In this document: piece by piece, positions 20,854 through 63,832 of the stretch
Layout: each line of letters opens with the position of its first letter
How positions within the stretch are numbered: position 1 is the stretch's first letter
Assembly (NCBI GenBank): GCA_963806085.1
Contig: CAWDWR010000003.1
Location: 778,590-842,589 of the forward strand
DNA from: an uncultured Acidobacteriota bacterium
GTDB taxonomy: Bacteria > Acidobacteriota > Vicinamibacteria > Vicinamibacterales > JAKQTR01
Reading direction: 5' to 3'
DNA: 64,000 nucleotides
Position numbers and translations under genes: made by a program
Notes under the pieces: generated by a model
Seen by the model: the letters and a program-made list of their open reading frames with translations, nothing else
What the model was told of the DNA's origin: nothing
The model's database searches: none

Positions 20854-20888
20854 CTAGCCCCTAGCCCCTCGTCCCTACCCCCTGCTAG
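20854..20888. repeat. tandem heptamer array (CTAGCCC CTAGCCC CTCGTCC CTACCCC CTGCTAG), single arm
   Basis: Direct reading. Same unit family as the right arms at 49825 and 53445. No complementary arm nearby. Confidence 0.8.
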
Positions 20889-20891
20889 AAT
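20886..20891 (+). promoter_or_regulatory. possible -10 element (TAGAAT) for the tRNA
   Basis: Ends 10 nt before the mature tRNA 5' end. No convincing -35 element. Confidence 0.35.
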
Positions 20892-20901
20892 AGGATGTTA
20901 C

Positions 20902-20978
20902 GCCGGTGTAGCTCAGATGGTTAGAGCACGCGGCTCATATCCGCGGAGTCCGGGGTTCAAGTCCCTGCACCGGCACCA
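20902..20978 (+). tRNA. tRNA with CAT anticodon: elongator tRNA-Met or lysidine-dependent tRNA-Ile2 (not an initiator)
   Basis: The cloverleaf folds by hand. Acceptor GCCGGTG/CACCGGC, D arm GCTC-AGATGGTTA-GAGC, anticodon stem CGCGG/CCGCG with loop CTCATAT, T arm CGGGG-TTCAAGT-CCCTG, encoded CCA. G1-C72 and the lack of a GGG/CCC anticodon stem argue against tRNA-fMet. Confidence 0.9.
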
Positions 20979-20984
20979 TTTGCT

Positions 20985-21029
20985 GCGAGGGGTCAGGCGT
21001 TGACGCGCCAGACCCCTCGCGTCTTTTCT
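20985..21029 (+). terminator. Rho-independent terminator after the tRNA
   Basis: 10-bp stem GCGAGGGGTC / GACCCCTCGC with a 16-nt loop, followed by GTCTTTTCT. Confidence 0.65.
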
Positions 21030-21041
21030 GCGCCGTCTTCT

Positions 21042-22465
21042 GTGTCCACTCCGTCACTCCAGCAGCGCGTCCGGCGCGCGATTCGCCGCGACGGACTGAT
21101 TCCGCCCGGCTCGCGGGTGCTGGCCGCCGTGTCGGGCGGGTCCGATTCGGTGGCATTGCTGCGCCTGCTCGTCGACCTCGCCAACGACGGCGGCTTCACG
21201 ATTGCCGGCGTCGCCCATGTCAATCACGGCCTCCGGGGCAGCGAAAGCGACCGCGACGAAGCATTCTGTCTGGCGCTCGCCGAACGCCTCGACCTCCCAT
21301 TCGAGGTCCGCGGCCGCGACGTCGGCGAGACTCGCTCGTGCGATGCACGTGTCTGTCGAAGTGGCGGCGCGGCAGGCGCGCTACGAATGCTTCGCCGAGA
21401 TGGCCGAGCAGTTGAGGGCCGACCTCGTCGCCACCGGCCACACGCGCGACGACCAGGCCGAGACGTTTCTGCTTCGCCTGCTTCGTGGCGCCGGATCGGC
21501 CGGCCTGGCGGGAATCCGGCCCCGGCGGGGCCGCATCGTCCGCCCGCTGCTGGACATCCGGCGCGACGAACTTCGGGCCTACCTGGCCGGCAGGCGGCCA
21601 ACCGTTCAGAAACGACTCGACCAACCGCGACCTCGCCGTCCCGCGCAACTGGATTCGCCATCGCCTGCTGCCGTTGCTCGCCAGGCAGCTCCATGCCGAC
21701 ATCGTCGAGGTGCTCGCGAGAAACGCCGCGGTCCTGCGCGACGAAGCGGCGTTTCTTGACGGCCTGGCGCAGGACGTGGCCGTGCAAGTGCTGAAGAAGG
21801 CGCCAGGCGGAGCGCTCCATCTCGACGCCCGCAAGCTCAGCACGCTGCCGGCCGCCGTGGCGAGGCCGCTCGTCCGCCAGTTGCTGGACCGGGCCGCGCC
21901 GGCCCGCTTCCGAGGGTTCGACCACGTCGAGCAGGTGCTGGAACTTGCCGCAACGGCGCGTGTGAGAGCGGCGGCTGACCTTCCCGGGGTCCGCGTGGAA
22001 CGAAACGGCACAGAAGTTGTCTTATACAGTAGGGGGTTATCCGGCCGCGGGTCCAAGGCAGCATTTCGTTACGAACTGCCGGTGCCGGGGCGGGTCGACC
22101 TGCCCGAGTGCGGTTGCGCGATCGAGGCGAAGCTGGTCAGGCGAACACCAGGCCAAGTCTTTACGCCGCAGTCGTTTGGCGACGATCGAGACGTGGCGAC
22201 GATCGACGGATCCATCGCAGGCGGCGCTCTGGCGGTCAGGTCGAGGCGACCTGGCGACTGCGTCCGGCCGCTTGGCCTCGCAGGCCGGAAGAAGCTCCAG
22301 GACGTCCTGGTCGACCGGAAAGTGCCCCGTGACGAGCGGGATTGCGTGCCCTTGGTGGTCGATGCCGACGACCGAATCCTGTGGGTCGCAGGCCACGTAG
22401 TGGCGCACGAGGCGCGGGTCACGGATTCGCACGCGGGGCGTGGTAGTCTTGAAGCTCATTCGTAA
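21042..22465 (+). pseudogene. tilS: tRNA(Ile)-lysidine synthetase; frame broken twice
   Basis: GTG 21042 lies just after the tRNA terminator. VLAAVSGGSDSVALL PP-loop (frame 0). ATGHTRDDQAETFLLRLLRG (ORF 21202 frame). C-terminal domain ...LQDVLVDRKVPRDERDCVPLVVD (ORF 21485..22465). Confidence 0.8.
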
Positions 22466-22486
22466 CGGAGAAGAGGGAGACGAGGC

Positions 22487-24409
<1,923 letters not shown>

Positions 24410-24457
24410 GACCGGTCGCGGCGGCTCGATCGTCCCGCGCGAACAGGGTCCGAGACC

Positions 24458-24475
24458 GTCTCCCTTCGGGGGGAC
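24458..24475 (+). terminator. small UUCG-loop hairpin after ftsH
   Basis: GTCTCCC TTCG GGGGGAC. No U tract. Confidence 0.3.
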
Positions 24476-24510
24476 ACGCTCCGTTCCGGTGTGATAGAAC
24501 TGGGGCCGGA

Positions 24511-25399
24511 ATGGAGCGTCTCCCCGCCGTCATCGCCCCGCGTCCCTTCTTCACCGTGCCGCTCGCGCACGGGCTCAGTCTCGAACTGGGCCCGCGCACG
24601 CTCGTGATGGGGATTCTCAACGTCACGCCCGACTCCTTTGCCGGCGGCGTGACCAGACCCGGACCTCGCGGCGGACCTGGCGCTTCGGATGGAGGCCGAT
24701 GGGGCCGACATCATCGACATCGGGGGCGAATCGACCAGGCCGGGAGCCGACCCTGTTGCCGAGGCCGACGAACTGGCCCGGGTGCTTCCCGTCATCGAAC
24801 GGCTCAAGGGGCGGTTGGCGGCGCCCATCTCCATCGACACGTACAAGGCCGCCGTGGCGGGAGAGGCGCTGGCCGCCGGCGCCTCTATCGTGAACGACAT
24901 CAGCGGTTTAGGGTATGATCCCATCCTCGGTGATGTCGTCGCTCGCGCGGGCGCCGGGCTCGTGCTGATGCACACGCGCGGGCGGTCGCGGGAGATGTAT
25001 CGGCGACGCGGAGCTACGGCGACGTCGTGGCGGAGGTGTCGGCGGAGCTGCGCCAGGCGCTCGAGCGTGCGGATGCCGCAGGCGTGCCGCGCGCGCAGGT
25101 CATCGTCGACCCCGGCATCGGTTTCGCCAAAGCGGGCTGACCAGAGCCGCGCGGTGCTCGACGAAGCTCGCCGGCGCTCGGGCCTCTGGGCCGGCCGCTG
25201 CTGGTCGGGCCCGTCGCGGAAGTCGTTTCTGCTCGACGGGCAGGCGCCGGTGCCGCCATCCGCGCGCGACTGGGGCACGGCGGCGGCCGTCACGGTCGCC
25301 GTCATGGGCGGCGCGCATATCGTGCGGGTGCACAACGTGGCGGCGATGGTGCAGGTGGTGCGCGTCGCCGACGCGCTTCGCGCAGAGGCGCACGCATAA
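24511..25399 (+). pseudogene. folP: dihydropteroate synthase; about seven frame breaks
   Basis: [16 protein letters not shown] (ORF 22786 frame). [14 protein letters not shown]...[10 protein letters not shown]...IVNDISG (ORF 24689..25399). IVDPGIGFAK in another frame. GPSRKSF...GAHIVRVHNV again in ORF 24689..25399. Confidence 0.8.
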
Positions 25400-25438
25400 C
25401 GGCGGCGCACGCGTCGCGACGGGATTCAGGCAGGTGCG

Positions 25439-26252
25439 GTGGACTCACTGATTTCGATGCTCCAGCGGGCGCAGGTGGGATGGACGGATGTCATCGACAT
25501 CCTCATCGCCGCCATCGCGATCTATGAGCTGTTGAAGCTCATGCGCGGCACCCGTGCGGTCCAGATGGGCATCGGCGTGGGGCTGATCATCGGGGTGTTC
25601 TACCTGTCCGAATGGTGGCACCTCGACACGGTCAACTGGCTCATCCGCAACATCGCCGGGTACGTCGTCTTCGCGGCCATCGTCGTCTTCCAGTCGGAGA
25701 TCCGCCGGACGCTCGCGCATCTCGGGCGGGCGCGGTTCTTCCGGTTCCTCACGCGCACCGAGTCGAACGACGAGATCGTCGAGGAGCTCGTCGCGGCCGC
25801 GACGATGCTGGCGAGCACGCGGACCGGCGCCATCATCGCCGTCGAGCGCGACATCGGCCTGCGCAACTACATCGAGGGCGGCGTGCCGCTGGACGCGACG
25901 CTGACGTCGGACCTGCTGCTGAGCCTGTTCCAGCCGAAATCGCCGCTCCACGACGGCGCGGTCATCGTCCAGGGCGACAGGATCGCGGCGGCGGCCTGCT
26001 TCCTGCCGCTGTCGGTCAACCCGGCGATCAGCAAGGACTTCGGCACGCGGCACCGTGCCGCCATCGGCCTGACCGAGGACGTCGACGCGGCGGCGATCGT
26101 CGTGTCGGAGGAGACGGGGCGCATCACGCTGGCGCTCGACGGGCAACGTGGAAGTGGGCCTCGACGCCGACCGGCTGCGGGCGAGACTGCGGTCGCTGGT
26201 GCCGCTCAGGAAGGCCGTGGCCGATCACGGCAATGCAGGATCGATGGACTGA
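25439..26252 (+). pseudogene. cdaA: diadenylate cyclase CdaA (DisA_N domain); one frame break (~26145)
   Basis: Three N-terminal TM helices. GAIIAVERD...SPLHDGAVIV...GTRHRAAIGLTE...VVSEETGRI. The tail is in the next frame and ends TGA 26250..26252. Confidence 0.85.
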
Positions 26253-28514: not shown

Positions 28515-28526
28515 CAGGAGTGATCA

Positions 28527-29435: not shown

Positions 29436-29444
29436 CGGCCGGCC

Positions 29445-30214: not shown

Positions 30215-30252
30215 CCGATGGAGCCCCGGGGGCGCGGAAGGCACGTGATCGC

Positions 30253-32367: not shown

Positions 32368-32377
32368 GACAGCTTGA

Positions 32378-32412
32378 CAGTAGTCAGTAGCCAGTAGTCA
32401 GTAGTCAGTAGA
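32378..32412. repeat. tandem heptamer array, five units (CAGTAGT CAGTAGC CAGTAGT CAGTAGT CAGTAGA); left arm of an inverted pair
   Basis: Direct reading. It is the reverse complement of the GCTACTG/CTGGCTA units that start at 32441. Confidence 0.9.
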
Positions 32413-32440
32413 AGAGCAGAACACGCCTAACGGTGTCCAA

Positions 32441-32489
32441 CTGGCTACTGGCTACTGGCTACTGGCTACTGGCTACTGGCTACTGGCGG
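32441..32489. repeat. tandem heptamer array, about seven units of CTGGCTA; right arm, truncated by the IS
   Basis: Direct reading. A 28-nt spacer separates it from the left arm. The IS left end follows within ~7 nt. Confidence 0.9.
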
Positions 32490-32495
32490 CTCAAT

Positions 32496-33893
32496 CCGGA
32501 CACATAGGTAACACATTCGTCTGGACACATGGGTAACACTTTTCGCCATCGCTTCGCAGGAGGGCGCGATGCCATGGCAAGGAGTGAGTCCTATGGATCT
32601 GCGACGGTTGTTTGTCCGCGCGTACGTCGCGGGCGGGTTGTCGATGACCGAGTTGTGTGAGCACTACGGGATCAGCCGCAAGACGGGGTACAAGTGGGCT
32701 GCCCGCTTCGAGCACACGGGGCTCGAGGGCCTGGTGGACCAATCGCGGCGGCCGCAGCACTCGCCGCGGGCGACGGGGGGCGCGGTGACGCACGCGCTGT
32801 GTGACGCGCGGCGCCGCCATCCGACGTGGGGGGCGCGCAAGCTTCTGGCGGGGCTGCGCCGCACGTGGCCGACGTGGCCGTGGCCGGCGCCGTCCACCGG
32901 CAGTGCGCTGCTGAAGGCCCACGGCCTGGTCCGGACGCCCCGCTGCCGCCGACGCGGGCACGCGTCCCCGAGTCCCTTGGCGCCGGCCACGCGCCCGAAC
33001 GAGGTGTGGACCACGGATTTCAAAGGCGAATTCCGCCTGGGGGATCGAACGTATTGTTATCCCCTCACGCTGCGCGATCTGCACAGCCGCCTCGTGCTGC
33101 GCTGTGATGCCCTGCCCGAGAAATCCGGCCGACTGGTGCGGCCGTGCTTCGAGCGCGCGTTCCGCGACCATGGGCTGCCGGAGCGGCTGCGCAGTGATAA
33201 TGGCGGCCCCTTTGCCGCGCCGGGGTTGACGCGGCTCTCGCACCTGTCGGTCTGGTGGCTGCGTCTGGGCATTCAGCCCGAACGCATTGCGTTGGGCCAT
33301 CCGGAACAGAACGGTGCCCATGAGCAATTCCACCGCGTGCTGAAAGCGGAAACGGCACGGCCGCCCGCGGCGCACCTCGCGGCGCAACAGCGCCGCTTCC
33401 GACACTTCTGCGGCGACTACAACACCGAGCGCCCCCATGAGGCGTTGGGCGACGTCACCCCGGCGAGCTGCTACGCGGCCTCGCCCCGTCCCTATCCCAC
33501 CCACCTCCCGCCGCTCGAGTATCCGGGGCACTGGGAAGTCCGCCGCGTTGCCAGCACCGGCCAGGTCTCGTGGGCGGGCAACCCGCTCTATCTCACCGAG
33601 GTCCTGGGCGGGGAACACGTCGCCTTTGAGGAAGTCGAGGACGGCCTCTGGATGCTGCACTTCGCGACGGTCCGCTTGGCGCGGTTCGAGGCTCGCACCC
33701 GCACGCTCACGCCCGTCCCGTATGCGTGAGCGGACCAGGCGCGTGGAGGCTGCCGGCGCCGTGGACCCACACGACGGGTCCACCGGCTCCTTGGAAAACG
33801 CCCAACGCGCGTTTTCCACAGCCACCACACGCATCGTCACACTGTTACCTATGTCTCCAGACAGATCTGTTACCCTTCTCTCCGAACGTCCGG
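32496..33893 (+). mobile_element. IS481-family insertion sequence (~1.4 kb) inserted in a heptamer array
   Basis: Single transposase ORF. Imperfect terminal inverted repeats: CCGGAC..GGTAACACATTCGTCTGGACACATGGGTAACAC on the left and the rc of the right end CCGGAC..GGTAACAGATCTGTCTGGAGACATAGGTAACAG (27 of 33 in the best-aligned stretch, by eye). Exact ends and the target duplication are not resolvable inside the repeat. Confidence 0.6.
32569..33729 (+). CDS. IS481-family transposase (N-terminal HTH plus DDE/rve integrase core)
   Basis: Intact 386 aa. GLSMTELCEHYGISRKTGYKW, VWTTDF, LRSDNGGPF, HPEQNGAHEQFHRVLK. Confidence 0.8.
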   Translation: MPWQGVSPMDLRRLFVRAYVAGGLSMTELCEHYGISRKTGYKWAARFEHTGLEGLVDQSRRPQHSPRATGGAVTHALCDARRRHPTWGARKLLAGLRRTWPTWPWPAPSTGSALLKAHGLVRTPRCRRRGHASPSPLAPATRPNEVWTTDFKGEFRLGDRTYCYPLTLRDLHSRLVLRCDALPEKSGRLVRPCFERAFRDHGLPERLRSDNGGPFAAPGLTRLSHLSVWWLRLGIQPERIALGHPEQNGAHEQFHRVLKAETARPPAAHLAAQQRRFRHFCGDYNTERPHEALGDVTPASCYAASPRPYPTHLPPLEYPGHWEVRRVASTGQVSWAGNPLYLTEVLGGEHVAFEEVEDGLWMLHFATVRLARFEARTRTLTPVPYA

Positions 33894-33949
33894 GCTACTG
33901 GCTACTGGCTACTGGCTACTGGCTACTGGCTACTGGCTACTGGCTACTG
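33894..33949. repeat. tandem heptamer array, eight perfect units of GCTACTG; continuation of the array on the far side of the IS
   Basis: Direct reading. It starts immediately after the IS right end and ends 13 nt before the pdxJ ATG. Confidence 0.9.
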
Positions 33950-33962: not shown

Positions 33963-34673
33963 ATGAAGTTGGGCCTCAACATCGACCACATCGCCACCAT
34001 CCGTCAGGCGCGGCGCGCGCGGGAGCCGGAACCTGTCACGGCCGCCCTCATCGCTGAACTGGCGGGCGCCGAGGGCATTACGGTCCACCTGCGCGGCGAC
34101 CGCCGGCACATCCAGGACCGCGACGTCGAACTCCTGCGGCAGGTCATCGCCACCAGGCTCAACGTCGAGATGGCCGCCACGACGGAAATGGTCGGCATCG
34201 CCTGCCGCGTGAAGCCCGACCAGGTGACGCTCGTGCCGGAGCGGCCCGACGAGGTCACCACGACCGGCGGGCTCGACGTCGTCCAGCACGCCGGCGCGGT
34301 CCGCGACGCGGTCACGGCCTGCCGCGCGGCCGGCATCAAGGTGAGCGTCTTCATCGACGCCATCCCTGAACAGGTGGACGCCTCGAAGGCCGCCGGCGCC
34401 GATGCGATCGAGATCAACACGGGCCCGTATGCCGACGCGCCCGAGCCGGAGCGGCCGGCCGGCTTGACCCTTATCGCCCTGGCGGCGGAGCGCGCCGCAA
34501 GGGCCGATCTCGAGGTCCTGGCGGGCCACGGCCTCAACTACGTGAACGTCACCCCCATCGTCCGGCTGCCGCACATCGTCGAGCTGAACATCGGCCACGC
34601 CATCATCGCGCGGGCCGCGTTTGTCGGCCTCGATCGGGCAGTGAGGGAGATGGTGGGGCTGCTCAGAGGATGA
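33963..34673 (+). CDS. pdxJ: pyridoxine 5'-phosphate synthase
   Basis: MKLGLNIDHIATIRQAR...ITVHLRGDRRHI...NVEMA...VTLVPE...HGLNY...ELNIGHAIIA. Intact. Confidence 0.93.
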   Translation: MKLGLNIDHIATIRQARRAREPEPVTAALIAELAGAEGITVHLRGDRRHIQDRDVELLRQVIATRLNVEMAATTEMVGIACRVKPDQVTLVPERPDEVTTTGGLDVVQHAGAVRDAVTACRAAGIKVSVFIDAIPEQVDASKAAGADAIEINTGPYADAPEPERPAGLTLIALAAERAARADLEVLAGHGLNYVNVTPIVRLPHIVELNIGHAIIARAAFVGLDRAVREMVGLLRG

Positions 34674-35470
34674 AGGGGCTTCGCATGCGGGGATCAGGGG
34701 CTGGGGGCTGGGGGCTAGGGGCTGGGGACTTGGCGCTCGGCGCTAGTCAGGCTCGCCCTTTCGCTGCATTCCTGGTCCTCTCGCTTGTCACGCTGGCTGC
34801 GTCGGTGGCGGGCGCGGCGGAGCCGCAGACGGTGACGTTCACCGCGCGGGACGGCGTGCAGGTTTCGGCCGTCCTGCACGTACCCGACAAGACACCGGCC
34901 CCGGCCGTAGTCCTCCTCAACATGCTGGGCCGCACCCACCGTGATTGGGACGGTGCGGCCGCGAAATTCGTCGAGGCCGGCATTGCCGTGCTCGCCGTGG
35001 ACTTCAGGCAGATGGCGCTCGCCGATCCCGACGCGGCCGAGAGCGCCAGCAGCCGGTATGCGGCGCTCGTGCTGGACGCGGAGGCCGCGCGCGCCTATCT
35101 GGCCGCCAGACCCGAGGTGAACCCCTCTCGCATCGGGATGGCGGGCGCGTCGCTCGGCGCGAACGTCGCCGTCCTGGCTGCCGCCAACGATCCCTCGGTC
35201 CGCTCGCTCGCGCTGCTGTCGGTCAGCCTCGACTACCGCGGGCTGAAACTCGAGCAGGCGCTCAGGAAGTTCGCCTCGAGGCCGGCGCTGCTCGTCGCCA
35301 GCAGCGAGGATCCTTTCGCGCTGCGATCCGCGCGGCAGGCGGTGACGATGGGGGACGGCGCCCGTGAATTGCGGGTGCTGTCGGGGGCCGGCCACGGGTC
35401 CATGATGCTCGCCCGGGAGCCGGACCTGGCTGGCGCGCTGGTGGACTGGTTCCTCCGCACGTTGCTATGA
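34670..35470 (+). CDS. secreted alpha/beta hydrolase (dienelactone hydrolase-like); true start probably downstream of the repeat
   Basis: Intact ORF with signal-like FAAFLVLSLVTLAASVAGAAEP and nucleophile elbow GASLGA. The first ~25 codons are just the heptamer array (GAGGWGLGAG). Confidence 0.6.
   Translation: MKGLRMRGSGAGGWGLGAGDLALGASQARPFAAFLVLSLVTLAASVAGAAEPQTVTFTARDGVQVSAVLHVPDKTPAPAVVLLNMLGRTHRDWDGAAAKFVEAGIAVLAVDFRQMALADPDAAESASSRYAALVLDAEAARAYLAARPEVNPSRIGMAGASLGANVAVLAAANDPSVRSLALLSVSLDYRGLKLEQALRKFASRPALLVASSEDPFALRSARQAVTMGDGARELRVLSGAGHGSMMLAREPDLAGALVDWFLRTLL
34697..34745. repeat. tandem heptamer array (GGGGCTG GGGGCTG GGGGCTA GGGGCTG GGGACTT GGCGCTC GGCGCTA), single arm
   Basis: Direct reading. 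It is followed by GTCAGGCTCGCC, which resembles the loop start of the elements at 49771 and 53391. Confidence 0.85.
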
Positions 35471-39905: not shown

Positions 39906-40026
39906 CAGTAGTAAGTAGCCAGTAGCCAGTAGGAACGCACAGCGAGAATGGGACGGCGAATGGGTCAGCGTGACGCCGGCGTGGCGTTCTTCTACTGACT
40001 ACTGGCTACTGACTACTGGCTACTGA
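39906..40026. repeat. inverted pair of heptamer arrays (CAGTAGT AAGTAGC CAGTAGC CAGTAGG ... CTACTGA CTACTGG CTACTGA CTACTGG CTACTGA) with a 58-nt spacer
   Basis: Direct reading. Arms are 39906-39933 and 39992-40026. Same unit family as at 32378-33949. Confidence 0.9.
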
Positions 40027-40059
40027 TCGGAGTACTTCCCGCTACAATGATTGTGCGGC

Positions 40060-49544: not shown

Positions 49545-49742
49545 AGCGTTCTCCGTGAATAGGTTGACAACAAACGGGTTGGCCGAACCGGGCCCCGGCG
49601 GGGCGGCCACGGCAGCCGAAGTTTGGACGCTCGCGTCGGTCGGTCGGCCGGAGACATGTCAGACGTGCGGCACGTGATGCTGATTACCAGTCCCCGATGG
49701 TACCGAGGCCGGAGAGAACGTGTCAATACTGCTACGATGGGA

Positions 49743-49853
49743 GGGACTGGGGACTGGGCGCTAGGGGCTAGTCGGACGCGACTCTCGCCGCATGGGTGGC
49801 GAGGCAACATGACCGAATGGCTGACTAGCGCCTAGCGCCAAGTCCCTAGCGCC
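49743..49853. repeat. ~110-bp hairpin element: four heptamers (GGGACTG GGGACTG GGCGCTA GGGGCTA), a 54-nt loop, four complementary heptamers (CTAGCGC CTAGCGC CAAGTCC CTAGCGC)
   Basis: Direct reading. The loop contains its own 6-bp hairpin CTCGCC-N8-GGCGAG. The element ends 8 nt before the ATPase ATG. Confidence 0.9.
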
Positions 49854-49860
49854 TGACAGG

Positions 49861-52002: not shown

Positions 52003-52006
52003 CTTC

Positions 52007-53329: not shown

Positions 53330-53362
53330 GACCGGCCTCCAGGGGGGAACTGTACTACGGCA

Positions 53363-53472
53363 GGCGCCAGGGACTCGGCGCTAGGCGCTAGTCGGTCTTG
53401 GCGTCTCGCCGGCAGGCCAGCCACGCGGCGGGAGCCGCGTCTCACTAGCCCCTAGCGCCAAGTCCCTAGCCC
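53363..53472. repeat. second copy of the ~110-bp heptamer hairpin element (GGCGCCA GGGACTC GGCGCTA GGCGCTA, a 54-nt loop, CTAGCCC CTAGCGC CAAGTCC CTAGCCC)
   Basis: Direct reading. Same orientation as the copy at 49743. The right arm runs straight into the stop codon (CTA, 53473-53475) of the response-regulator gene. Confidence 0.9.
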
Positions 53473-54189
53473 CTAATTCGCGTGCTGCAGGTACTGTGCG
53501 TCGACGAACTCTTCGACGGCGGACTGATCGGCGGCGTCGATGCGCTCGAACTGCATCCCCATGCCCACGCGCCGGTCGCTCCAGGCCACACGGGCGTCGG
53601 CGTCCACGTCTCGTTTCGAGTTGGGCAGGCGGAAGCGCACCCTGGCGCGGGTCGCGGAGTCGAGCGGGCTCATCGTGCGGATGGCCAGCCCGCCGCGGCT
53701 GAGGTTCAGCGTCACGGCGGCGGCAATGGTGTTGCCGAACCGATAGGCCACCGGGATGCCGAGCGACACGCGCGGGCTGGTCCGGCGGTTGAAATTGTCG
53801 GGGAACAGGTGTGGCGCCAGCGACGGCAGGATCTGCTGCGACGCGCTGTACTCGTTCACGTACCCGGCGATCCCGAGCGTGGCCAGGTCGCGGACTTCGG
53901 ACGCCCCGCTGATCGTGCCGCTGAACACCAGGATCGGCAGGCGCCCGCCGTCGAGCTTGCGAATGGACCTCACGAGGTCGGCCCCGCCGGCATGGGGCAG
54001 GCGGAGGTCCACCATGACCAGGTCGATCTCCGGCAGGTCCGCCCTCACCCGGGCCAGCAGTTCGGCTGCGCTCTTGACGGTGAACGCCCGGTGCCCGGCC
54101 TGCTCGATGGCGGCCCTGAACCGCTCGCGCACGAACGGGGTATCATCGGCGATGAGGACGGTCTTGTGCACGGCGCCGGCCATGGTCAT
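53473..54189 (-). CDS. response regulator receiver domain fused to a PilZ (c-di-GMP binding) domain
   Basis: VLIADD...DLVMVDLRLP receiver. PilZ motifs RRTSPR (RxxxR) and NLSRGG (D/NxSxxG). Intact. The ATG at 54189 is preferred over the TTG at 54198. Confidence 0.75.
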   Translation of the reverse strand: MTMAGAVHKTVLIADDTPFVRERFRAAIEQAGHRAFTVKSAAELLARVRADLPEIDLVMVDLRLPHAGGADLVRSIRKLDGGRLPILVFSGTISGASEVRDLATLGIAGYVNEYSASQQILPSLAPHLFPDNFNRRTSPRVSLGIPVAYRFGNTIAAAVTLNLSRGGLAIRTMSPLDSATRARVRFRLPNSKRDVDADARVAWSDRRVGMGMQFERIDAADQSAVEEFVDAQYLQHAN

Positions 54190-54238
54190 TCTGTGCAAGT
54201 GTATCGGATTGGGCCCGCCGGAACGTTAGGCCGTTGCG

Positions 54239-54268: not shown

Positions 54269-54383
54269 CCAGGCTCCCGTCGCGACAACCGTCGGCGTGT
54301 CAGCAGTTACGCGGGCGCCGCCGGGGTAGGCCCCGGCCCTGGGAGCACTGGCCGGTCCGCGTGCGACCCGTTGTGGAGGCGGT

Positions 54384-54602
54384 ATGGCAATCTGCCCTGA
54401 ATGCGAGTTCGAGATTGACGTCGACGAGTACGACGTGGACCGGGGCGACACCCTCGAATGCGACAACTGCGGGGTGACCCTCGAAATTATCGGCCTCAAC
54501 CCCATCGAGTTCGAGGTCGCGTCCGACGACGACGAGGAAGAAGACGAGGAGGACGACGACCTGGATGAAGAGGAGGCGGAGGTTGATGAGGACGACGAGT
54601 GA
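54384..54602 (+). CDS. LysW-like zinc-ribbon protein with a 27-residue poly-acidic C-terminal tail
   Basis: MAICPECEFEIDVDEYDVDRGDTLECDNCGVTLEIIGLNPIEFEV aligns by eye to Thermus LysW (CPECGAEL...CEDCGAELEVVGLDPLRLE). The tail is SDDDEEEDEEDDDLDEEEAEVDEDDE, ends in Glu, and lacks the EDWGE motif. Confidence 0.55.
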   Translation: MAICPECEFEIDVDEYDVDRGDTLECDNCGVTLEIIGLNPIEFEVASDDDEEEDEEDDDLDEEEAEVDEDDE

Positions 54603-57819: not shown

Positions 57820-58552
57820 CCAGGCAGAGGAGCGAACTTCCGAAGGGCATGGGCACGGCTCGCACCAGGCCCGCCTCGACGGCCAGCAGCGCGCTGAGTG
57901 CGGCATTGACCGGGCGCGGAGGCACCGTGATCTCGCCTTCAGCCTCGCTCTCCGGCGCGAGCCCTGCGATCCGCTGCACGCCGCGCACGCCCAGCATGAG
58001 CGGGAAGAGCGCGGCGTTCGTGTACGTCATCCGCTCGACGCCGAACCCGGCGGCCTCGAGGCGTGCGCGCAGGCTGGCCCGGCTGTAGCGCCGCAGTTCC
58101 GCCGAGAGCACCGAGTGGTTGCCGCGCAGGATGTCCATCGCGGCCACGTTGATGATGGCCGCGCCGCCGGGCTTGAGCACGCGCCACATCTCCCGCACGG
58201 CTTCCCGCTCGACCTGGTCGGGCAGGCAGTAGAGCACGTCGAACGATGTGACGATGTCGAAGGCGGCCGAGGGATACGGCACGGCGGCCGCGCTCGCCTG
58301 GGCAACGCGCGCCGCGCCGGAGGCACGGGCAAACTGCAGGCCGGTCCAGGTCAGGTCGAAACCCCAGGCTCTGCCGTACGGCTCGAGCAGCACCCGCAGA
58401 TTCGTGCCCGTGCCGCATCCGCAGTCGAGCAGGCGCAGCCCCGTGCGGCCGGCCGCGGCCCGCGCGAGCATCGGCGAGACGAACCGCCGGAATCCGCGGA
58501 ACCAGAAATGATCACGCTCGGCGCGCGCCGTGGCTTCAAGCAGTCGATCCAC
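57803..58552 (-). CDS. class I SAM-dependent methyltransferase
   Basis: LLDCGCGTGTN motif I, VLKPGGAAII. Intact. The ORF track extends to 58669. GTG 58552 (VDRLLEATARAERDHFWF) leaves a sensible divergent promoter region. Confidence 0.75.
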   Translation of the reverse strand: MDRLLEATARAERDHFWFRGFRRFVSPMLARAAAGRTGLRLLDCGCGTGTNLRVLLEPYGRAWGFDLTWTGLQFARASGAARVAQASAAAVPYPSAAFDIVTSFDVLYCLPDQVEREAVREMWRVLKPGGAAIINVAAMDILRGNHSVLSAELRRYSRASLRARLEAAGFGVERMTYTNAALFPLMLGVRGVQRIAGLAPESEAEGEITVPPRPVNAALSALLAVEAGLVRAVPMPFGSSLLCLARKPA

Positions 58553-58686
58553 GCGCGTATTGTACGACGCCGGCCGATTCCTCTGGCCTCGATCTGCCGG
58601 GCATGCCAGAATGAAGCAGGAAGACTGCCAGCCGGCCGTTTCCTTCGGGACGTTCCCATCAGGCCCCACTCAAGGAGAGTTCGCCA

Positions 58687-59264
58687 ATGATGCGGTCGTC
58701 GAAAGCGCTCATTTCCGTCATCGCCCTCGTCCTGGTGACGCTGTCGGTTGCGTGCTCGAAGAAGCCTCCGGTCACCGCTCCGCTTCCGCCGCCGCCGCCC
58801 CCGCCCACGACGCCGGCCCCGCCGCCTCCGCCTCCTCCTCCGCCGCCGCCTCCGGCGGCCGCGCCGAAGCCGCTGACCGAGGACGAGGTGTTCGCGAAGA
58901 AGACGCTGGCGGAACTGAACGCGGAGAAGCCGCTCGAGGACGTGTATCTTCGACTACGACAAGGCGGACCTCAAGGCGGACGCCCGCTCGTCACTGGCGA
59001 AGGACGCGGAGTGGCTGAAGCGCTGGCCGTCGACGAAGGTCATCGTTGAAGGGCACTGCGACTCGCGCGGCACGAACGAGTACAACCTGGCGCTCGGCGA
59101 AAAGCGCGCGGCGGCGGTGCGGGACTACCTGGCGGGCCTCGGCATCGCGGCCGATCGCGTGCAGGTCGTGACCAAGGGCGAAGAGTCGCCATTCTGCCTC
59201 GAGGAAGCCGAGAGCCTGCTTCGCGCAGAACCGGAGAGGCCACTTCATCCTCTCCGCGAAGTAG
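58687..59264 (+). pseudogene. pal: peptidoglycan-associated lipoprotein (OmpA-family C-terminal domain); frame broken twice
   Basis: Lipobox LSVAC, a long Pro linker, then (next frame) FDYDKADLK...VIVEGHCDSRGTNEYNLALGEKRA...VTKGEE, and a third-frame tail ...NRRGHFILSAK (stop 59262..59264). Confidence 0.8.
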
Positions 59265-59272
59265 GACATCCG

Positions 59273-60005
59273 CTACGCTCCTGCGTCCGCCGCGATCTTC
59301 TCGGCCGCGGCGCGGGGGTCCGGTGCCGCGATGATGGGCCTTCCCACGACGATGTAGCTCGCGCCGGCCGCCACGGCTTCCGCCGGCGTCATCGTCCGGG
59401 CCTGGTCGTCCCTGGGCCTCGGCGGCAGGCCCGGCGGGTCTGCAGGGCGGATGCCGGGCGTGATGAGCACGAACTCGTCGCCCCGGGCCGCGCGCAGCCG
59501 TCCCACTTCCTGGGGCGAGGCCACGACGCCGTCCGCGCCGGCCTCCTGCGCCAGCCACGCGAGGGCGTCGACCTGGTCGATGACCGGGCGCGGGACGCCG
59601 ATGGAAATCAGCGTGTCCTGGTCGAAGCTGGTGAGCACGGTGATGGCGATGATGAGCGGGGGCGGCACGCCGGCCTTCGCGGCGCCGGCATGCGCCGCTT
59701 CGCGCGCCGCTTTCATCATGGCCACCCCGCCGCTGGCGTGGACGTCGATGACCCAGGCGCCGAGCTTGGCGGCCTCGGCCGCCGCGCTCGCCACCGTGTT
59801 CGGAATGTCGTGGTACTTCAGGTCCAGGAAGACCCGGTGGCCGGCGTCGACCAGGCGCCGGACGATGTCGGGCCCGGCGGCGGTGAACAGTTGGCTGCCG
59901 ACCTTGACGGCGCCCACCGCGCCGCGCAGGGTGTCGGCGAGCGCGAGCGCCTTGTGCCGGGCTGTCGACGTCCAGTGCGACGATGACGGGATTCACTGCT
60001 GCCAT
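59273..60005 (-). pseudogene. pyrF: orotidine 5'-phosphate decarboxylase; one frame break (~59950)
   Basis: MAAVNPVIVALDV in the ORF 59040..60653 frame, then ORF 59273..59917 (VKVGSQLF...VFLDLKYHDIPNT...ITPGIR...IVVGRPI). Confidence 0.82.
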
Positions 60006-60034
60006 CTCCTGACCCTCACCTCGGGCCGCTGGCG

Positions 60035-60955
60035 TCAGCGGCTCATCTGCACCGTGCCCACGAGGTCCGCCGCGCGGGCAATGCCGTGGCGCGTCATGTA
60101 GTCCTCGATCCCCGCCTGGAGCTTGGGCCAGATGAACGGATCGATGAAGCTGGCCGTGCCCACCTGCACGGCCGTGGCGCCGGCGATCATGAACTCGAGC
60201 ACGTCGCGGGCGCTGCCGATGCCGCCCATGCCGATCACGGGGATCCGGACCTGCTGCGCGCATTCGTACACCATGCGCACGGCGATCGGGCGGATCGCCG
60301 GACCGCTCAGGCCGCCCATGCCGTTCGAAATCGCCGGGCGCCGCGTCTCGAGGTCGATGACCATCGCGAGGAACGTGTTCACGAGCGACACGGCGTCGGC
60401 GCCGTTCTCCTCGGCCGCGCGCGCGAACGACGACACGCTGGTCACGTTGGGCGTGAGCTTCGGGATGAGCGGCAGCGTCGTGACCTTGCGGACGGCCGCC
60501 ACCACCTCGCCCGTGCTCGACAGGTTGCAGCCGAACTGGATGCCGCCTTCCTTGATGTTCGGGCACGAGATGTTGAGCTCGATGGCCGCCACGCCCTCGC
60601 AGTCGGACAGGATCCGCGTCACCTCGGCGTACTCGTCGATCGAGCTGCCGCACACGTTCACGATGACGACGGCGCCGAGGCGGCGCAGTTCCGGCATCTT
60701 CTCGCGGACGAAGCGATGCACGCCGATGCCCTGAAGGCCGATGGCGTTGAGCATGCCGGACGGCGTCTCGACGATGCGCGGAGGCGGATGGCCCTCGCGC
60801 TCCTTCAGGAAGAGCCCCTTGACCACCACCGCGCCGAGCGAGGACAGGTCGACGATCTCGGCGTACTCGAGGCCGTAGCCGAAGCAGCCGCTCGCGGACA
60901 TGAGCGGGTTCTTCAGGACGAGCGAGCCGATACGGACGCTGAGATCCACCGTCAC
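60035..60955 (-). CDS. pyrD: dihydroorotate dehydrogenase, class 1B catalytic subunit
   Basis: GTG 60955 overlaps the pyrK stop. LKNPLMSASGCFGYG...ELNISCPN...NTF...GLSGPAIRPIA...IGMGGI. Intact. Confidence 0.9.
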   Translation of the reverse strand: MTVDLSVRIGSLVLKNPLMSASGCFGYGLEYAEIVDLSSLGAVVVKGLFLKEREGHPPPRIVETPSGMLNAIGLQGIGVHRFVREKMPELRRLGAVVIVNVCGSSIDEYAEVTRILSDCEGVAAIELNISCPNIKEGGIQFGCNLSSTGEVVAAVRKVTTLPLIPKLTPNVTSVSSFARAAEENGADAVSLVNTFLAMVIDLETRRPAISNGMGGLSGPAIRPIAVRMVYECAQQVRIPVIGMGGIGSARDVLEFMIAGATAVQVGTASFIDPFIWPKLQAGIEDYMTRHGIARAADLVGTVQMSR

Positions 60956-61782
60956 TCCCAGATCAGGTCGTCGCCGTTGAACACGGGGCCGTTCAGGCAC
61001 GAGCGCACGAAGCGCGGCGCGCCGCCGGCGTCCCGCACGCGCACCACGCAGCTGTAGCACCCGCCCAGGCCGCAGCCCATGATCCGTTCCGTCGAGAGCT
61101 GCGACGGGCAGCCGTGGGTGCGGGCCAGGCCGGCGACCGCCTTCAGCATCGGCTCCGGACCGCAGGCATACAGCGTCACCGGGACGCCAGCCGGACGGGC
61201 GCGAAGCGCCTCGTCGAGCGGCGCCGTCACCCGGCCGTGCGCGCCGAGCGATCCATCTTCAGTCGCCAGATCGAGCCGCACGCCGCGCGACGCGAACCAG
61301 TCCAGATAGAAGAGGTCGGCGCGCGTGCGGCCCCCGTAGAACAGCCGCGTGCGGGCGCCCGTCGCCTGCAGCGCCTCCGTCAGCGTCGCAAACGGCGCCA
61401 GGCCGACGCCGCCCGCCACCATCCACGCCTCGACCGGCGGCGACACGGGAGAGAACGGCTTGCCGAGCGGGCCCAGGACCGAAAGCCGGTCACCCGCGGC
61501 CGCGTCGTACAGCCTCGTGGTGCCCGGGCCAATCCGCTTGCACAGCACCGAGAAGCCGGATGGCGACCCAGCCGCATCACGGAGGATTTCGAAGACGGAG
61601 AACGGCCGGCGCAGAAGCGGGTCGGTGCCCGCCGCTGTGCGGATCATGACGAACTGCCCCGGCAGGCTCGCGGCGGCGATGGCCGGGGCCTCGAACTGCA
61701 GCACGTTGTAGTCTGCGGACAGGAGGGTATTGCGCAGGACCAGGGACGGAACGTCCAACGGCGGCATGGGGAAAGTATACAT
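60952..61782 (-). CDS. pyrK: dihydroorotate dehydrogenase electron-transfer subunit
   Basis: Start at MYTFPMPP (61782). PGQFVMIR, RPFS, ...MGCGLGGCYSCVV 2Fe-2S loop. The ORF-track extension to 61872 is translated heptamer repeat (RIPNPES...). Confidence 0.85.
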   Translation of the reverse strand: MYTFPMPPLDVPSLVLRNTLLSADYNVLQFEAPAIAAASLPGQFVMIRTAAGTDPLLRRPFSVFEILRDAAGSPSGFSVLCKRIGPGTTRLYDAAAGDRLSVLGPLGKPFSPVSPPVEAWMVAGGVGLAPFATLTEALQATGARTRLFYGGRTRADLFYLDWFASRGVRLDLATEDGSLGAHGRVTAPLDEALRARPAGVPVTLYACGPEPMLKAVAGLARTHGCPSQLSTERIMGCGLGGCYSCVVRVRDAGGAPRFVRSCLNGPVFNGDDLIWE

Positions 61783-61783
61783 G

Positions 61784-61818
61784 TTCGGGATTCGGGATTC
61801 GGGATTCGGGATTCGGGG
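61784..61818. repeat. tandem heptamer array, TTCGGGA x4 plus TTCGGGG
   Basis: Direct reading. It begins 1 nt beyond the pyrK start codon and lies between the divergent pyrK and the AlkP-family gene. No complementary arm seen. Confidence 0.9.
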
Positions 61819-61849
61819 ATAGCATTGAGCGCGAGGCGGCGCGGGACGA

Positions 61850-63596
61850 ATGCGATACCTGCGGATGCTCACGAATTCGGTGATCGGGGGGACTGGCGTT
61901 CGCCCTCTATCTCACGATTCTCGTGCTGCAGATCAACCCGGGCTACCCGTTGATGAGCATCCAGGGCCTCGCGGCCACGCTCGTTCTGTCCTACGGCTTT
62001 CACACGGCCACGGTTTTCTACGTGCTGATCGTGCTGCGGCAGTTGCTGGCCACCGAGGTGATTTCGCCGGGCTGGATCAGCTTCAGGTTCCTCGTCTGGC
62101 TCTGTTCGGCCAGTGCCGGGGCGGCGACGCTGCTGACCTGGGTGAACCTCCGCGATCTTGCGCCCTTCATGGATCCCGAGGCCGTCACGCGGATGACCGG
62201 CGGCGCCGTCGTGCTGACGGTCTGCGCGGGCATCATGCTCGCGCTGGCCCTCGGGCACCGGTGGGCCGGGCGCCACAGCTCCAGGCCCGGCGCGGTGGTG
62301 CTGGCCGCGGCCTTGATGGCGTCAATCGCGGGGCCGCTGATGCTCCGGGGCCCGGGTGCGGAGCCGCTGAGGGCGGCCCGGTGGCCGGCCGCGGCGCCCG
62401 GAGGCCGCTGGCCCGGGCGGCGAGTCCCGGGTCGTCATGGTCCTGCTCGAGGGCGCGTCGCTCGATCTGATCGCCCCGGCGGCCGTCGAGGGGCGTTTGC
62501 CGAACTTCGAACGCCTGCTCGAGCGCGGCGCCTCGCTGCACCTGGCCACGATGCGGCCCACGCAGCCCGCGCCGGTCTGGGCGTCGGCGGCCACCGGCAA
62601 GCTGCCGCTACAAGAACGGCATCCGGTCATCCGCCACCTATACGCCGCTGGCGAGCGCCGACGCCATCGAGGTGCTGCCCGACTACTGTTATTCCCATGC
62701 GCTGGTGGAGTACGGGTTCCTCCGCGAGCAGGTGCACGAGAGCCGCGACCTGACGGCGCGTGCCGCTCTGGAGCGTGCTCGGAGCGCAGGGCGTGCCGGT
62801 GGGCGTCGTGAACTGGTCGGTGACCCAGCCGGCGCGCGACGTGCGGGGCTACCTCGTGTCGGACCAGTTCGAGCGCCGGTACGCGACGGTGGTCGACGTC
62901 GAGAACATCGGGGTGATTTCGCCCAGGACGCCACGGCGGTGGCCGTGGCGGCCGCCGGCGAAGCCCGCCGCGCCGAACCGGTGCCGCCGCCCAGGGCGTC
63001 GGATGATGCCGGCCAGTCCGTCGCGCATCCCTGCGCCGCCGACCGTGTCCACGAACAGATTGCCGCCGAGCTCGATCGGCGCATGCCCAGCCGCTTCCAG
63101 GCCGTCCGCTACGAATGCCTGGACGCGGCCGGCCACTACTTCCTGCGGTACGCCGGTCCCGAGGGCGTTCGGCGACGTGTCAGACGCGGAACTGCAGCGG
63201 TACGGCGGTGTCCTGATCGCGCACTATGCGGCAGCCGACCAGATGCTCGGGCGGGTGATGGCCGGCCTGCGGCCGGGCGACCTGCTGCTGGTGGTCTCCG
63301 GGTTCGGCATGGAGCCGATGAGCATCGGCAAGCGGCTGCTCGAACGCACGGTCGGCAACCCCGAGCCGAGCGGCACCCACGAACCCGCGCCCGACGGGTT
63401 CCTCTTCGCGTATCGGCACCGACGTCAGGCCCGGGCCGATTGCCGCGCGGGTCGGTCGTGGACATCGTGCCGACGATCCTCTACTTCTTCGGCCTGCCGG
63501 TCGGCCGGGACATGGACGGCTTCGCCCGCACGGACATCTTCGCGCCGGCCTTCAGCGAGGGCCGGCCCATCACGTACATTCCGACGCTACGAGTAG
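61850..63596 (+). pseudogene. membrane-anchored alkaline phosphatase-superfamily protein (type I phosphodiesterase/nucleotide pyrophosphatase-like); about ten frame breaks
   Basis: N-terminal TM region (ORFs 61850, 61923). VLLEGASLD...LPNFERLLERG...TQPAPVWASAATG (ORF 62437). Later pieces lie in ORFs 62672 and 62760 (...VVSGFGMEP..., ...VDIVPTILYFFGLPVGRDMDG). The probable end is ...IPTYE at TAG 63594..63596. Confidence 0.6.
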
Positions 63597-63634
63597 GGGC
63601 TGGGGACTCGGGGCTGGGGGACTGGGGGGCTGGG
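63596..63634. repeat. tandem heptamer array (GGGGCTG GGGACTC GGGGCTG GGGGACT GGGGGGC ...); left arm of a wide inverted pair
   Basis: Direct reading. It starts at the last base of the upstream stop codon. Confidence 0.85.
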
Positions 63635-63794
63635 AATCAGGCTCTCCGATTCCCGTTCGAATCTGCTACACTGTCGTGGCTCTTTAACGGCGGTACGAGA
63701 TACCGCAAAGAGGATAGATGTTGCGTTGCACACCGCCACCCGAGCTCCGCGTTCTTGCGAGGTCGGGTGTTCTTCTGTACAGCTCGATTCCCAT

Positions 63795-63832
63795 AATCCC
63801 CGAGCCCCTGGTCCCCGATCCCCAGTCCCCCC
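63795..63832. repeat. complementary heptamer array (AATCCCC GAGCCCC ..GTCCCC GATCCCC AGTCCCC); right arm, ~160 nt from the left arm
   Basis: Direct reading. It ends at the GGAGG Shine-Dalgarno sequence of pyrR. Confidence 0.85.

Follow-up and report, generated by a model that had tools for sequence, protein, structure and literature searches.

Heptamer-periodic repeat arrays with hairpin potential at gene boundaries in a Vicinamibacterales genome (Acidobacteriota)

Heptamer arrays in described bacteria and in an acidobacterial window

Tandem arrays of seven-nucleotide (7-nt) units have been described in several groups of bacteria. Rehm et al. 2015 (PMC4692102) reported 183-186 arrays of GGGAATC-type heptamers per Xanthomonas genome, strongly intergenic in distribution. 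In this genus, whose guanine plus cytosine (G+C) content is stated to be above 60%, 70-75 cases of convergent inverted pairs lie within 50 bp of start or stop codons; most of the arrays are transcribed, their place is conserved while length and sequence vary between species, and no function was found (PMC4692102). Nostoc arrays of GGGGA(C/T)T are treated in the same paper, paired inverted arrays being few there. Mrazek 2007, as cited in PMC4679880 and PMC4692102, ranked heptamers first in abundance among long simple repeats, mostly in large genomes of high G+C content from non-pathogens, and proposed polymerase slippage as their origin, together with a polymerase-footprint idea for the period of 7. 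TAACTGA arrays stand directly upstream of start codons in marine Beggiatoaceae, some Cyanobacteria and Bacteroidetes (MacGregor 2015, PMC4679880). The (ATCTTTC)n array in the 5' untranslated region (5' UTR) of Haemophilus influenzae hmw folds into a long hairpin that RNase III cleaves, and expression varies with the length of the repeat (PMC12721329). The present report deals with arrays of the same period in DNA of an uncultured bacterium of the order Vicinamibacterales, phylum Acidobacteriota (GenBank assembly GCA_963806085.1, contig CAWDWR010000003.1, positions 778,590 to 842,589); this whole stretch of 64,000 nt is called the window. A full-text literature search for heptanucleotide tandem repeats in Acidobacteria gave nothing, and the phylum appears to be new for the known class of heptamer repeats.

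Period-7 arrays were called in the window with Tandem Repeats Finder (TRF) and counted if they comprised at least three copies. Fifteen were found, whereas 50 dinucleotide-preserving shuffles gave 0.92 on average and never more than 4, so the excess is real; in the same shuffle test no comparable enrichment was noticed for other periods, the excess being confined to period 7. The units follow one another head to tail, as in long heptanucleotide simple-sequence repeats. The original prediction, made from the letters of the window, had placed arrays of three unit families at eight loci: Family 1 with units such as GGGGCTG, GGGACTG and GGCGCTA, Family 2 with CAGTAGC and Family 3 with TTCGGGA. All of its positions were recovered by TRF, and folding agreed with its division into five hairpin-forming inverted pairs and three single arms, which confirms the earlier observation of heptamer arrays. 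All five pairs are convergent and fold as long hairpins with predicted stems of 30-45 bp (minimum free energy -61 to -128 kcal/mol, z -5.6 to -11.5, matched by 0 of 200 shuffles). The arrays had rightly been set apart from CRISPR, as their units are 7 nt long and contiguous and their arms are inverted, unlike the three or more direct repeats of 23-47 nt, with unique spacers of similar length, that make up a CRISPR array. Two other statements stood in part. The families are recognisable but not sharply separate, since units of Families 1 and 3 intergrade downstream of pdxJ; and most arrays do lie outside genes (12 of 13 window arms are non-coding), with the exception of the array at 34697, which is inside an open reading frame (ORF) at 34670-35470. 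A search of the whole window against Rfam at the gathering threshold returned tRNA-Met only, and a permissive search of 63550-63900 gave matches at chance level.

The best account of these elements, held with rather more confidence than doubt, is that they are heptamer-periodic, hairpin-forming repeats of the kind represented by the GGGAATC arrays of Xanthomonas and the short tandemly repeated repetitive (STRR) sequences of cyanobacteria, in part simple repeats and in part similar to repetitive extragenic palindromic (REP) elements. With the Xanthomonas and Nostoc arrays they share the 7-nt period and GGG units (GGGATTC, GGGACTC and GGGGACT, of the type found here, are closely similar), the intergenic bias, the convergent inverted pairs at a distance of tens of nt from start or stop codons, and the same polarity, i.e. 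G-rich on the sense strand after a stop and on the antisense strand before a start. In both cases the locus and its type (single or pair) are kept among relatives, length and sequence vary, and no functional class of genes is preferred. In contrast to those arrays, the present ones belong to an acidobacterial genome of about 70% G+C and include families without G-tracts (CAGTAGC, CAGAAGC), mosaics of families, one array inside an ORF and a Family 1 module of about 33 nt with fixed unit order, which is conserved across species and dispersed like REP; for some families a G-quadruplex (G4) is impossible by sequence. The cyanobacterial STRR are likewise tandem heptamers, mostly non-coding, but their heterocystous hosts have low G+C and most units found here (GGCGCTA, GGGGCTG, CAGTAGC) are not STRR units. 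The heptamer of STRR1 we take to be CCCCAGT. GGGACTG, and similarly GGGGACT, is a rotation of its complement, as the original prediction had remarked for GGGACTG, and this agrees with the Nostoc unit GGGGA(C/T)T (PMC4692102). The novelty then claimed for paired heptamer arrays in a high-G+C genome could not be upheld, because such pairs were already described in Xanthomonas (PMC4692102) and heptamers are common according to Mrazek 2007, as cited there. The TAACTGA arrays (PMC4679880) resemble the present ones in being intergenic and a few nt upstream of starts of all kinds of genes; they differ in having essentially one unit, in being almost only direct repeats (one indirect among 170 sets) and in occurring in low-G+C genomes.

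The arrays are not peculiar to one assembly. PdxJ of the window is most similar (89%) to PdxJ of Vicinamibacterales metagenome-assembled genomes (Acidobacteriota). An ENA contig (ERZ25039503 contig_41645, 116 kb, loci L081 and L084), referred to as strain 2, encodes an identical PdxJ and an identical CNNM/CorC protein and matches the window along about 40 kb at 96-98% identity; L-numbers such as L081 or L001 are labels of comparison loci and contigs. The JGI contigs L082, L083 and L097 also overlap the window and carry arrays, and in L097 the pair at 53362-53475 is present at 98.5-98.9% identity, free of gaps. Since the arrays recur in ENA and JGI assemblies that were made independently for this species, they are not an assembly artefact, the first doubt that the original prediction had raised against itself. 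The view that the repeats are errors of assembly or sequencing could point to probable indel errors in the window gene at 62700-63596; it is barely credible in view of the same arrays in independent assemblies, including contigs of the short-read style (k141 and NODE).

Loci around pdxJ were also compared among lineages. The density of period-7 arrays per 100 kb of such loci was 23.4 in the window, 18.7 in Vicinamibacterales, 15.7 in Thermoanaerobaculia, 15.2 in other Acidobacteriota, 13.5 in Syntrophaceae and other delta-proteobacteria, 3.2 in the Gallionella group and 0.6 in Geobacter and other Desulfuromonadales. The propensity for period 7 is therefore lineage-specific. Arrays of period 8 were also encountered, at 13.7 per 100 kb in Acidobacteriota outside Vicinamibacterales (loci L022, L027, L031, L055, L056, L059 and L063) and at 7.5 in Syntrophaceae and delta-proteobacterial loci, and the favoured repeat period may differ by lineage. 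One related species (L006) is far denser than the window, with 14 period-7 arrays in about 7 kb (13970-20705) and 17 in the whole locus of 20.7 kb, made of families of its own (GGCTGGA/GGCTGGG and GCCTCAA/GCCCCAA).

Family 1 as a dispersed module of fixed unit order

Four copies of the Family 1 28-mer GCTAGGGACTTGGCGCTAGGCGCTAGTC, with at most 2 mismatches, lie in the window, where 0 are expected. Its exact 23-nt core, GGGACTYGGCGCTAGGSGCTAGT, was found in 48 JGI/ENA metagenome contigs, which correspond to a count of 44 upstream contexts, orthologues from different metagenomes being among them, and to at least 30 by inspection. The order of units is constant, (T/C)AGGSGCTA-GGGACTT-GGCGCTA-GGCGCTA-GT, about 33 nt in all. 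An inverted partner lies within 260 nt of 20 of 54 Family 1 arms; spacers cluster at 45-69 nt, and some of them share an inner hairpin, ACGCGGC-nnnn-GCCGCGT, many others being unrelated. When folded as a single arm Family 1 is weakly structured (-6.7 kcal/mol, z = -2.3), and arms of Families 2 and 3 are unstructured. Overlap with a stop codon was considered as a general rule for Family 1 and dropped, as a same-strand ORF ends at the element in just 8 of 44 contexts, which makes such overlap frequent without being general. A phage origin was rejected too, since 2.9 million viral contigs do not contain the core; six unrelated viral contigs match a triple unit of Family 2.

Family 1 arms are better conserved than the genes that flank them. 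This was measured on the right arms of orthologous pairs, i.e. the part that had not been selected by the search. Right arms are identical between orthologues at 30-32 of 32 positions, compared to 83-93% identity in coding flanks and 46-77% in spacers. In L087 and L131 the entire 132-nt element is identical and the flanks are 90-93% identical, for which P is estimated at about 1e-5 under equal rates. Most orthologous Family 1 elements are of the same length even where their flanks are 83-93% identical; indels of 21 nt were seen between L101 and L124 and between L109 and L113.

Several families may also be joined in a row. Such mosaics (L088/L094/L116, L105/L132, L121 and L129 are examples) combine Family 1, Family 3, Family 2, CTTCTGG and CTTCTGT units, in this order. 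Arrays of CTTCTGG, designated F2' (the CAGAAGC/CTTCTGG variant of Family 2), have a fixed junction AGTGGGCCC-TTCTG at at least five loci. In L088, at 2450-3380, and also in L094 and L116, about 1 kb of near-continuous heptamer arrays of four to five families surrounds two small genes. This stretch includes a conserved junction, GGGCCCACT..ATTGTCAG, which is also located beside CTTCTGG arrays at other loci.

In sequence the repeats are unlike REP or bacterial interspersed mosaic elements (BIME), as had been stated at the outset, but Family 1, found in 48 contigs, behaves as a dispersed module of the REP/BIME type. Like REP, BIME and the hairpin-forming REP doublets known as REPIN, it is short and conserved, is found at tens of extragenic sites and occurs singly, as inverted pairs with variable linkers and in mosaics; the pairs form long hairpins, the elements persist in orthologous places with presence or absence between strains, and their arms are more conserved than the surroundings. 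In contrast to those elements, the arms found here are not clear palindromes, the end of Family 1 lacks a GTAG or CGTC tag, and there are an internal 7-nt periodicity and expandable arrays. The arms could also serve as the terminal inverted repeats of a MITE (a transposable element of the miniature inverted-repeat type); no duplication is visible at the Cu-ATPase site described below.

It has to be considered, then, whether the repeats are non-autonomous mobile elements of REPIN or MITE type, whole elements being copied by a transposase of an insertion sequence (IS) or by an HUH enzyme similar to REP-associated tyrosine transposases (RAYT), with the heptads as enzyme-binding subsites. The identity of the Family 1 core at more than 30 gene contexts, the REPIN-like geometry (33-nt arms with spacers clustering at 45-69 nt), the inner hairpin in a subset of pairs, the fixed F2' junction at at least five loci and the conservation of arms above flanks all agree with it, and so do the presence or absence of an element at the Cu-ATPase site and the replacement of one family by another in a single slot (PilZ-CNNM). 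Nevertheless it is arms, not whole elements, that are shared, many Family 1 spacers being unrelated; single arms have weak or no self-palindromy; and Families 2 and 3 act as plain expandable arrays. No target-site duplication could be defined when the filled Cu-ATPase site of the window was compared with the empty one of strain 2. A regular-expression search of six-frame translations for RAYT-like motifs (Y..NPV or HUH) gave nothing convincing in about 1.8 Mb, a small sample. Copying by a transposase is accordingly regarded as a possible but doubtful explanation.

Turnover of arrays between strains and around pdxJ

The window and strain 2 differ at several array sites: one element is present or absent, one slot has exchanged Family 1 for Family 3, two sites have exchanged Family 2 unit variants and two sites are unchanged. 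Length differences between strains, for which the original prediction had suggested looking, were found as well, including the 21-nt step between the window and L082 that is described below.

The element that is wholly missing in strain 2 is the Family 1 inverted pair at 49743-49854 (arms about 49743-49775 and 49823-49854; TRF 49743-49758 and 49825-49854), whose spacer of roughly 47 nt has a small hairpin of its own. In the window it stands between an extended -10-like motif, TGCTACGAT (49730-49738), and the ATG of a Cu-ATPase gene (49861), and therefore in the predicted 5' UTR of that gene. Just upstream, on the other strand, there is a divergent promoter of an ABC-transporter gene (TTGACA-18-TACCAT). 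In strain 2 the ATG follows TGCTACGAT by 5 nt, which suggests that the Cu-ATPase messenger RNA (mRNA) of that strain would be leaderless. The exchanged slot is that between the PilZ response-regulator and CNNM genes. Here the window has a Family 1 inverted pair at 53362-53475 (arms 53362-53394 and 53443-53475; TRF 53362-53391 and 53445-53475), between the stop of the PilZ response regulator (53473-53475, minus strand) and the start of CNNM/CorC (53329, minus strand); the stop is TAG and overlaps the element. Strain 2 has a Family 3 (GGGATTC) pair with a 122-nt spacer and the stop TGA, the replaced segment starting at the stop codon itself.

The two unit-variant exchanges concern Family 2, upstream of pdxJ and in the region of the DUF72 and QueE-like genes, where the window has CAGTAGC/CTACTGG and strain 2 has CAGAAGC/CTTCTGG. 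At both loci the unit is changed in both arms, with one relic CAGTAGC unit left, and the spacers cannot be aligned; this concerted change of both arms was counted in favour of heptamer repeats of the Xanthomonas and STRR kind. The second of these loci is an inverted pair at 39906-40026 (arms 39906-39932 and 39992-40026, 59-nt spacer), flanked by a divergent DUF72 gene (minus strand) and a radical-SAM gene (plus strand), which is probably QueE-like to judge from the N-terminus of its protein and the neighbouring QueC gene. Sixteen nt separate the end of its right arm from a -10-like TACAAT (40043-40048). The switch had prompted the idea that a trans-acting template sets the unit genome-wide, which was discarded because L001 carries both units, each at a locus of its own, and because composites have CAGTAGC and CAGAAGC side by side. 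The arrays upstream of pyrK and downstream of pdxJ are essentially unchanged in strain 2.

The slot upstream of pdxJ, which reaches from a few nt past the dehydrogenase stop up to the Shine-Dalgarno sequence of pdxJ, is filled by an inverted pair in the window, L001, L002, L003, L081 and L082. The units of this pair vary by genome (CAGTAGC, CAGAAGC, CAAGAAT/CAAGGAG, GGAGTCA), and the arms are complementary in every genome that carries the pair; L004 and L006 have no array there. In the window the left, purine-rich arm (32378-32411, plus strand, CAGTAG(T/C) x4.9) begins 12 nt past a TGA read as the stop of a short-chain dehydrogenase gene. The right, pyrimidine-rich arm (CTGGCTA) consists of part A (32440-32487, plus strand, ACTGGCT x6.9, exact) and part B (33893-33949, plus strand, GGCTACT x8.1, exact), the latter stopping 13 nt before the pdxJ ATG (33963), directly 5' of the Shine-Dalgarno sequence GGAG. 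Altogether the right arm has about 15 exact units versus 5 in the left one. The repeats that had been listed over 32378-33949 are thus there, but they make up a single inverted pair with its right arm split by an IS481-family insertion (about 32488-33892, plus strand, 1.4 kb), which is not a part of the repeat system. Strain 2 (L081) lacks the insertion, its intergenic gap being 153 nt.

Downstream of pdxJ the units shift gradually from species to species: L004 has (GGGATTC)4, L003 has (GGGACTC)3 GGGATTC, L001 has a mixture of units, and the window has GGGGCTG/GGCGCTA. Turnover of units in place thus links Families 1 and 3. In the window this site is the single Family 1 arm at 34697-34746 (plus strand; GGGGCTG units, then a GGGACTT-GGCGCTC-GGCGCTA-GT core). 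It forms the 5' coding part of the ORF at 34670-35470, of the dienelactone-hydrolase family, ahead of the hydrophobic core of the signal peptide. The ATG of this ORF overlaps the pdxJ stop (ATGA), and the start was called likewise in strain 2. In 10 of 11 orthologues, or in 6 of 7 independent array configurations, the reading frame stays open across the array and on into the signal peptide; with a random frame the calculated P of this is about 0.007. Between the window and L082 this site differs by 21 nt, i.e. three units or seven codons. In L001, at 10700-10790, the ORF through the array downstream of pdxJ is out of frame and runs for 18 codons before it meets a stop; a phase-off allele, an alternative start codon or an assembly error could account for this.

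Such an allele raises the question of contingency loci, in which a change of repeat number is selected in order to switch or tune specific genes by phase or rheostat variation. Arrays between a -10 motif and an ATG, right before starts and in a 5' coding region are placed as this would require, lengths vary between strains, the L001 orthologue is out of frame, and H. influenzae hmw is a precedent (PMC12721329). In hmw too a heptamer array forms a hairpin arm with a G-rich partner, in a transcribed 5' UTR; it is, however, a single contingency locus before an adhesin gene in a host-adapted pathogen, whereas here dozens of loci, known from sequence alone, stand beside housekeeping genes. The neighbours (pdxJ, pyrK, pyrR, tRNA-Met, the QueE-like gene) are indeed housekeeping or miscellaneous, and length is unchanged in most orthologous Family 1 elements. 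The same role was judged negatively for the Xanthomonas arrays (Rehm et al., PMC4692102), and it is improbable here.

Placement at gene ends and possible mode of action

With respect to the sense strand of the adjacent gene, a purine- or G-rich arm stands after a stop and a pyrimidine- or C-rich arm before a start. Tallied against the gene calls, the 21 arms of the window and of strain 2 all obey this rule; the arm at 20854 is ambiguous, for it lies between two divergent genes and can satisfy only one of them. TRF-based pairing over the window and the comparison DNA gave 46 inverted pairs, 36 of them with the purine-rich arm 5'. Six of the 10 exceptions are neighbouring elements, not true pairs, because their spacers exceed 200 nt, so that among close pairs the purine-rich arm is on the 5' side in 36 of 40. 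The unpaired mosaic in L088 follows the same rule.

The tight fit of arrays to gene boundaries, at 53473, 63596, 61782 and 63833, had been noticed before and agrees with the gene calls. The boundaries are the stop of the PilZ response-regulator gene (53473-53475), that of a phosphodiesterase-family gene (63594-63596), the pyrK ATG (61780-61782) and the pyrR Shine-Dalgarno sequence GGAGG (63833-63837), with GTG at 63843. The Family 3 single arm at 61784-61817 (minus strand; TTCGGGA x4.9 on the plus strand, CCCGAAT on the pyrK sense strand) leaves a single nt between itself and the ATG of pyrK (61782-61780). In strain 2 this array is about the same length, and the gene caller starts pyrK right after it. 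The Family 1-type inverted pair at 63596-63832 has a 160-nt spacer (TRF arms 63596-63634 and 63796-63830): the stop TAG at 63594-63596 overlaps its G-rich arm, 63596-63634, and its C-rich arm, 63796-63832, abuts the pyrR Shine-Dalgarno sequence (63833-63837). The spacer holds an extended -10-like motif, TGCTACACT (63664-63672), a putative promoter by its resemblance to the consensus, and therefore the two arms may belong to separate transcripts. The phosphodiesterase-family gene at 62700-63596 matches the strain-2 protein only in alternating reading frames, so that it is either a frameshifted pseudogene or a place of indel errors in the window assembly.

This placement could be understood if the pairs were selected RNA punctuation, i.e. 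bidirectional terminators, insulators or processing sites without a U-tract that replace intrinsic terminators. Pairs do stand directly after stops and before the next Shine-Dalgarno sequence; slots are kept across species in spite of sequence turnover; the strict polarity and the conservation of arms beyond coding flanks fit as well; and hairpin-plus-T-run terminators are not enriched in the 44-64 kb part of the window (9 versus 6.2 expected). On the other hand, pairs are also found between divergent genes (39906-40026, 49743-49854), where there is nothing to terminate, one pair is missing from a second strain of the species, the slot upstream of pdxJ holds no pair in L004 and L006, and one array is within an ORF. 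There is no G-U bias on the sense strand either. Punctuation as the selected role of the pairs is thus unlikely. Canonical intrinsic terminators were excluded separately, since no array appeared in the terminator scan (44-64 kb) and no T-run follows any right arm.

A further proposal, made for Xanthomonas and Nostoc, is that the elements act through four-stranded structures, G4 or i-motif. Oligonucleotides of the Xanthomonas and Nostoc type do form G4 in vitro (Rehm et al., PMC4692102), and by inspection at least four tracts of three or more G, 3-4 nt apart, are found at 20854 (minus strand), 34697, 49743, 61784 and 63596. The pair at 53362-53475, however, has fewer than four such tracts on either strand, the Family 1 core GGGGCTA GGGACTT GGCGCTA GGCGCTA has two only, and the Family 2 units CAGTAGC and CAGAAGC have no G-tracts at all. 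As Family 2 and the Family 1 core are unable to form G4, this structure cannot unify the arrays, and there is little to be said for it as their common principle.

If the arrays are heptamer repeats of the Xanthomonas and STRR kind, their behaviour could be explained as follows. Families 2 and 3 would be simple-sequence arrays which gain and lose 7-nt steps by slipped-strand mispairing, in steps of 21 nt where a reading frame must stay open. Template switching within the element is the most likely way in which unit variants would spread along an arm and across to its partner, so that the arms would stay complementary. The Family 1 module of about 33 nt, whose dispersal is shown, would be copied from locus to locus in the manner of REP and BIME, whether alone, as inverted pairs or in mosaics. 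All families would fill permissive slots, namely at stop codons, -10 boxes, Shine-Dalgarno sequences and in tolerant N-terminal coding sequence. Because most copies lie inside transcription units, they are expected to be transcribed into stems of 30-45 bp, and these stems could be substrates of RNase III or could act as a block at the 3' end of an RNA. On this view the elements would alter, from strain to strain, the expression of the genes beside them, without being sequence-specific regulators. For one route by which stems of this sort can influence genes there is a tested precedent, H. influenzae hmw (PMC12721329).

Several points weigh against this explanation. The RNA stems and their processing by RNase III are what we infer from the arrays themselves, and a strand-specific test gave no signal: among 13 pairs of known transcription direction, folding energies and G-U pair counts made the sense strand more stable in 7, and selection on the sense-strand RNA was rejected as a candidate. 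For the enzyme that would copy Family 1, neither a RAYT-like motif in the 1.8 Mb nor a target-site duplication was seen. The strong conservation of Family 1 arms is more in keeping with a selected function, or with concerted evolution, than with neutral junk; selection, and not template switching, could maintain arm complementarity; and the period of 7 is left unexplained by the model. Together with the strict polarity, this conservation suggests that the elements are not mere junk, and their presence or absence and the swapping of families within a species argue against an essential, locus-specific function.

A bolder possibility is that of a lineage-wide system in which heptad modules are copied into fixed slots by a dedicated trans-acting enzyme or an RNA-templated process and serve, under stronger constraint than neighbouring genes, as transcription-oriented, exchangeable punctuation (processing, termination, insulation) in genomes without canonical terminators. 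This is distinctly unlikely; were it true, a family swap in one slot would be a cassette exchange. What can be said already is that heptamer repeats extend to Acidobacteriota, a dominant but little-studied soil phylum, and that, as strain comparison revealed, one slot can carry different families or stand empty. The polarity rule known from other genera is confirmed, and a dispersed module of fixed order, mosaics, slot-wise swapping and a tolerated coding position are new details. Even as a by-product of slippage the arrays deserve attention, for they can be mistaken for coding sequence and displace predicted start codons. They may also create strain-specific 5' UTRs, as with the Cu-ATPase mRNA, apparently leaderless in one strain and provided with a structured leader of more than 100 nt in the other, and their repeat number is a ready marker for strain typing.

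The IS481-family element upstream of pdxJ, the only IS in the window, sits inside an exact (GGCTACT)n array and is missing in a strain that is 96-98% identical. Its transposase ORF (32569-33729) has the Pfam domains HTH_28, rve, rve_3 and LZ_Tnp_IS481. Imperfect terminal inverted repeats at 32495-32513 and 33843-33861, with two GGTAAC-containing subrepeats per end, are unrelated to the heptamer arms. No further copies were found when the comparison loci were searched with the ends of the element.

The remaining single arm, of Family 1 type, lies at 20854-20883 (minus strand; CTAGCCC x4.3 on the plus strand, G-rich on the minus strand). It is bordered on the left by ATTCTA (20848-20853), a -10-like TAGAAT on the minus strand, and on the right by the extended -10-like TGCTAGAAT (20883-20891) upstream of tRNA-Met (20902-20978); both motifs may be promoters, judging from the consensus. 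At the orthologous tRNA-Met locus, L117, a canonical Family 1 arm is in the same position. Extended -10-like motifs recur in the window just upstream of tRNA-Met (TGCTAGAAT), the Cu-ATPase gene (TGCTACGAT) and pyrR (TGCTACACT), and the plain TACAAT at 40043-40048 is just upstream of the QueE-like gene. TGCTAVRAT occurs three times where 0.36 occurrences are expected, and several repeat arms directly abut such -10 boxes.

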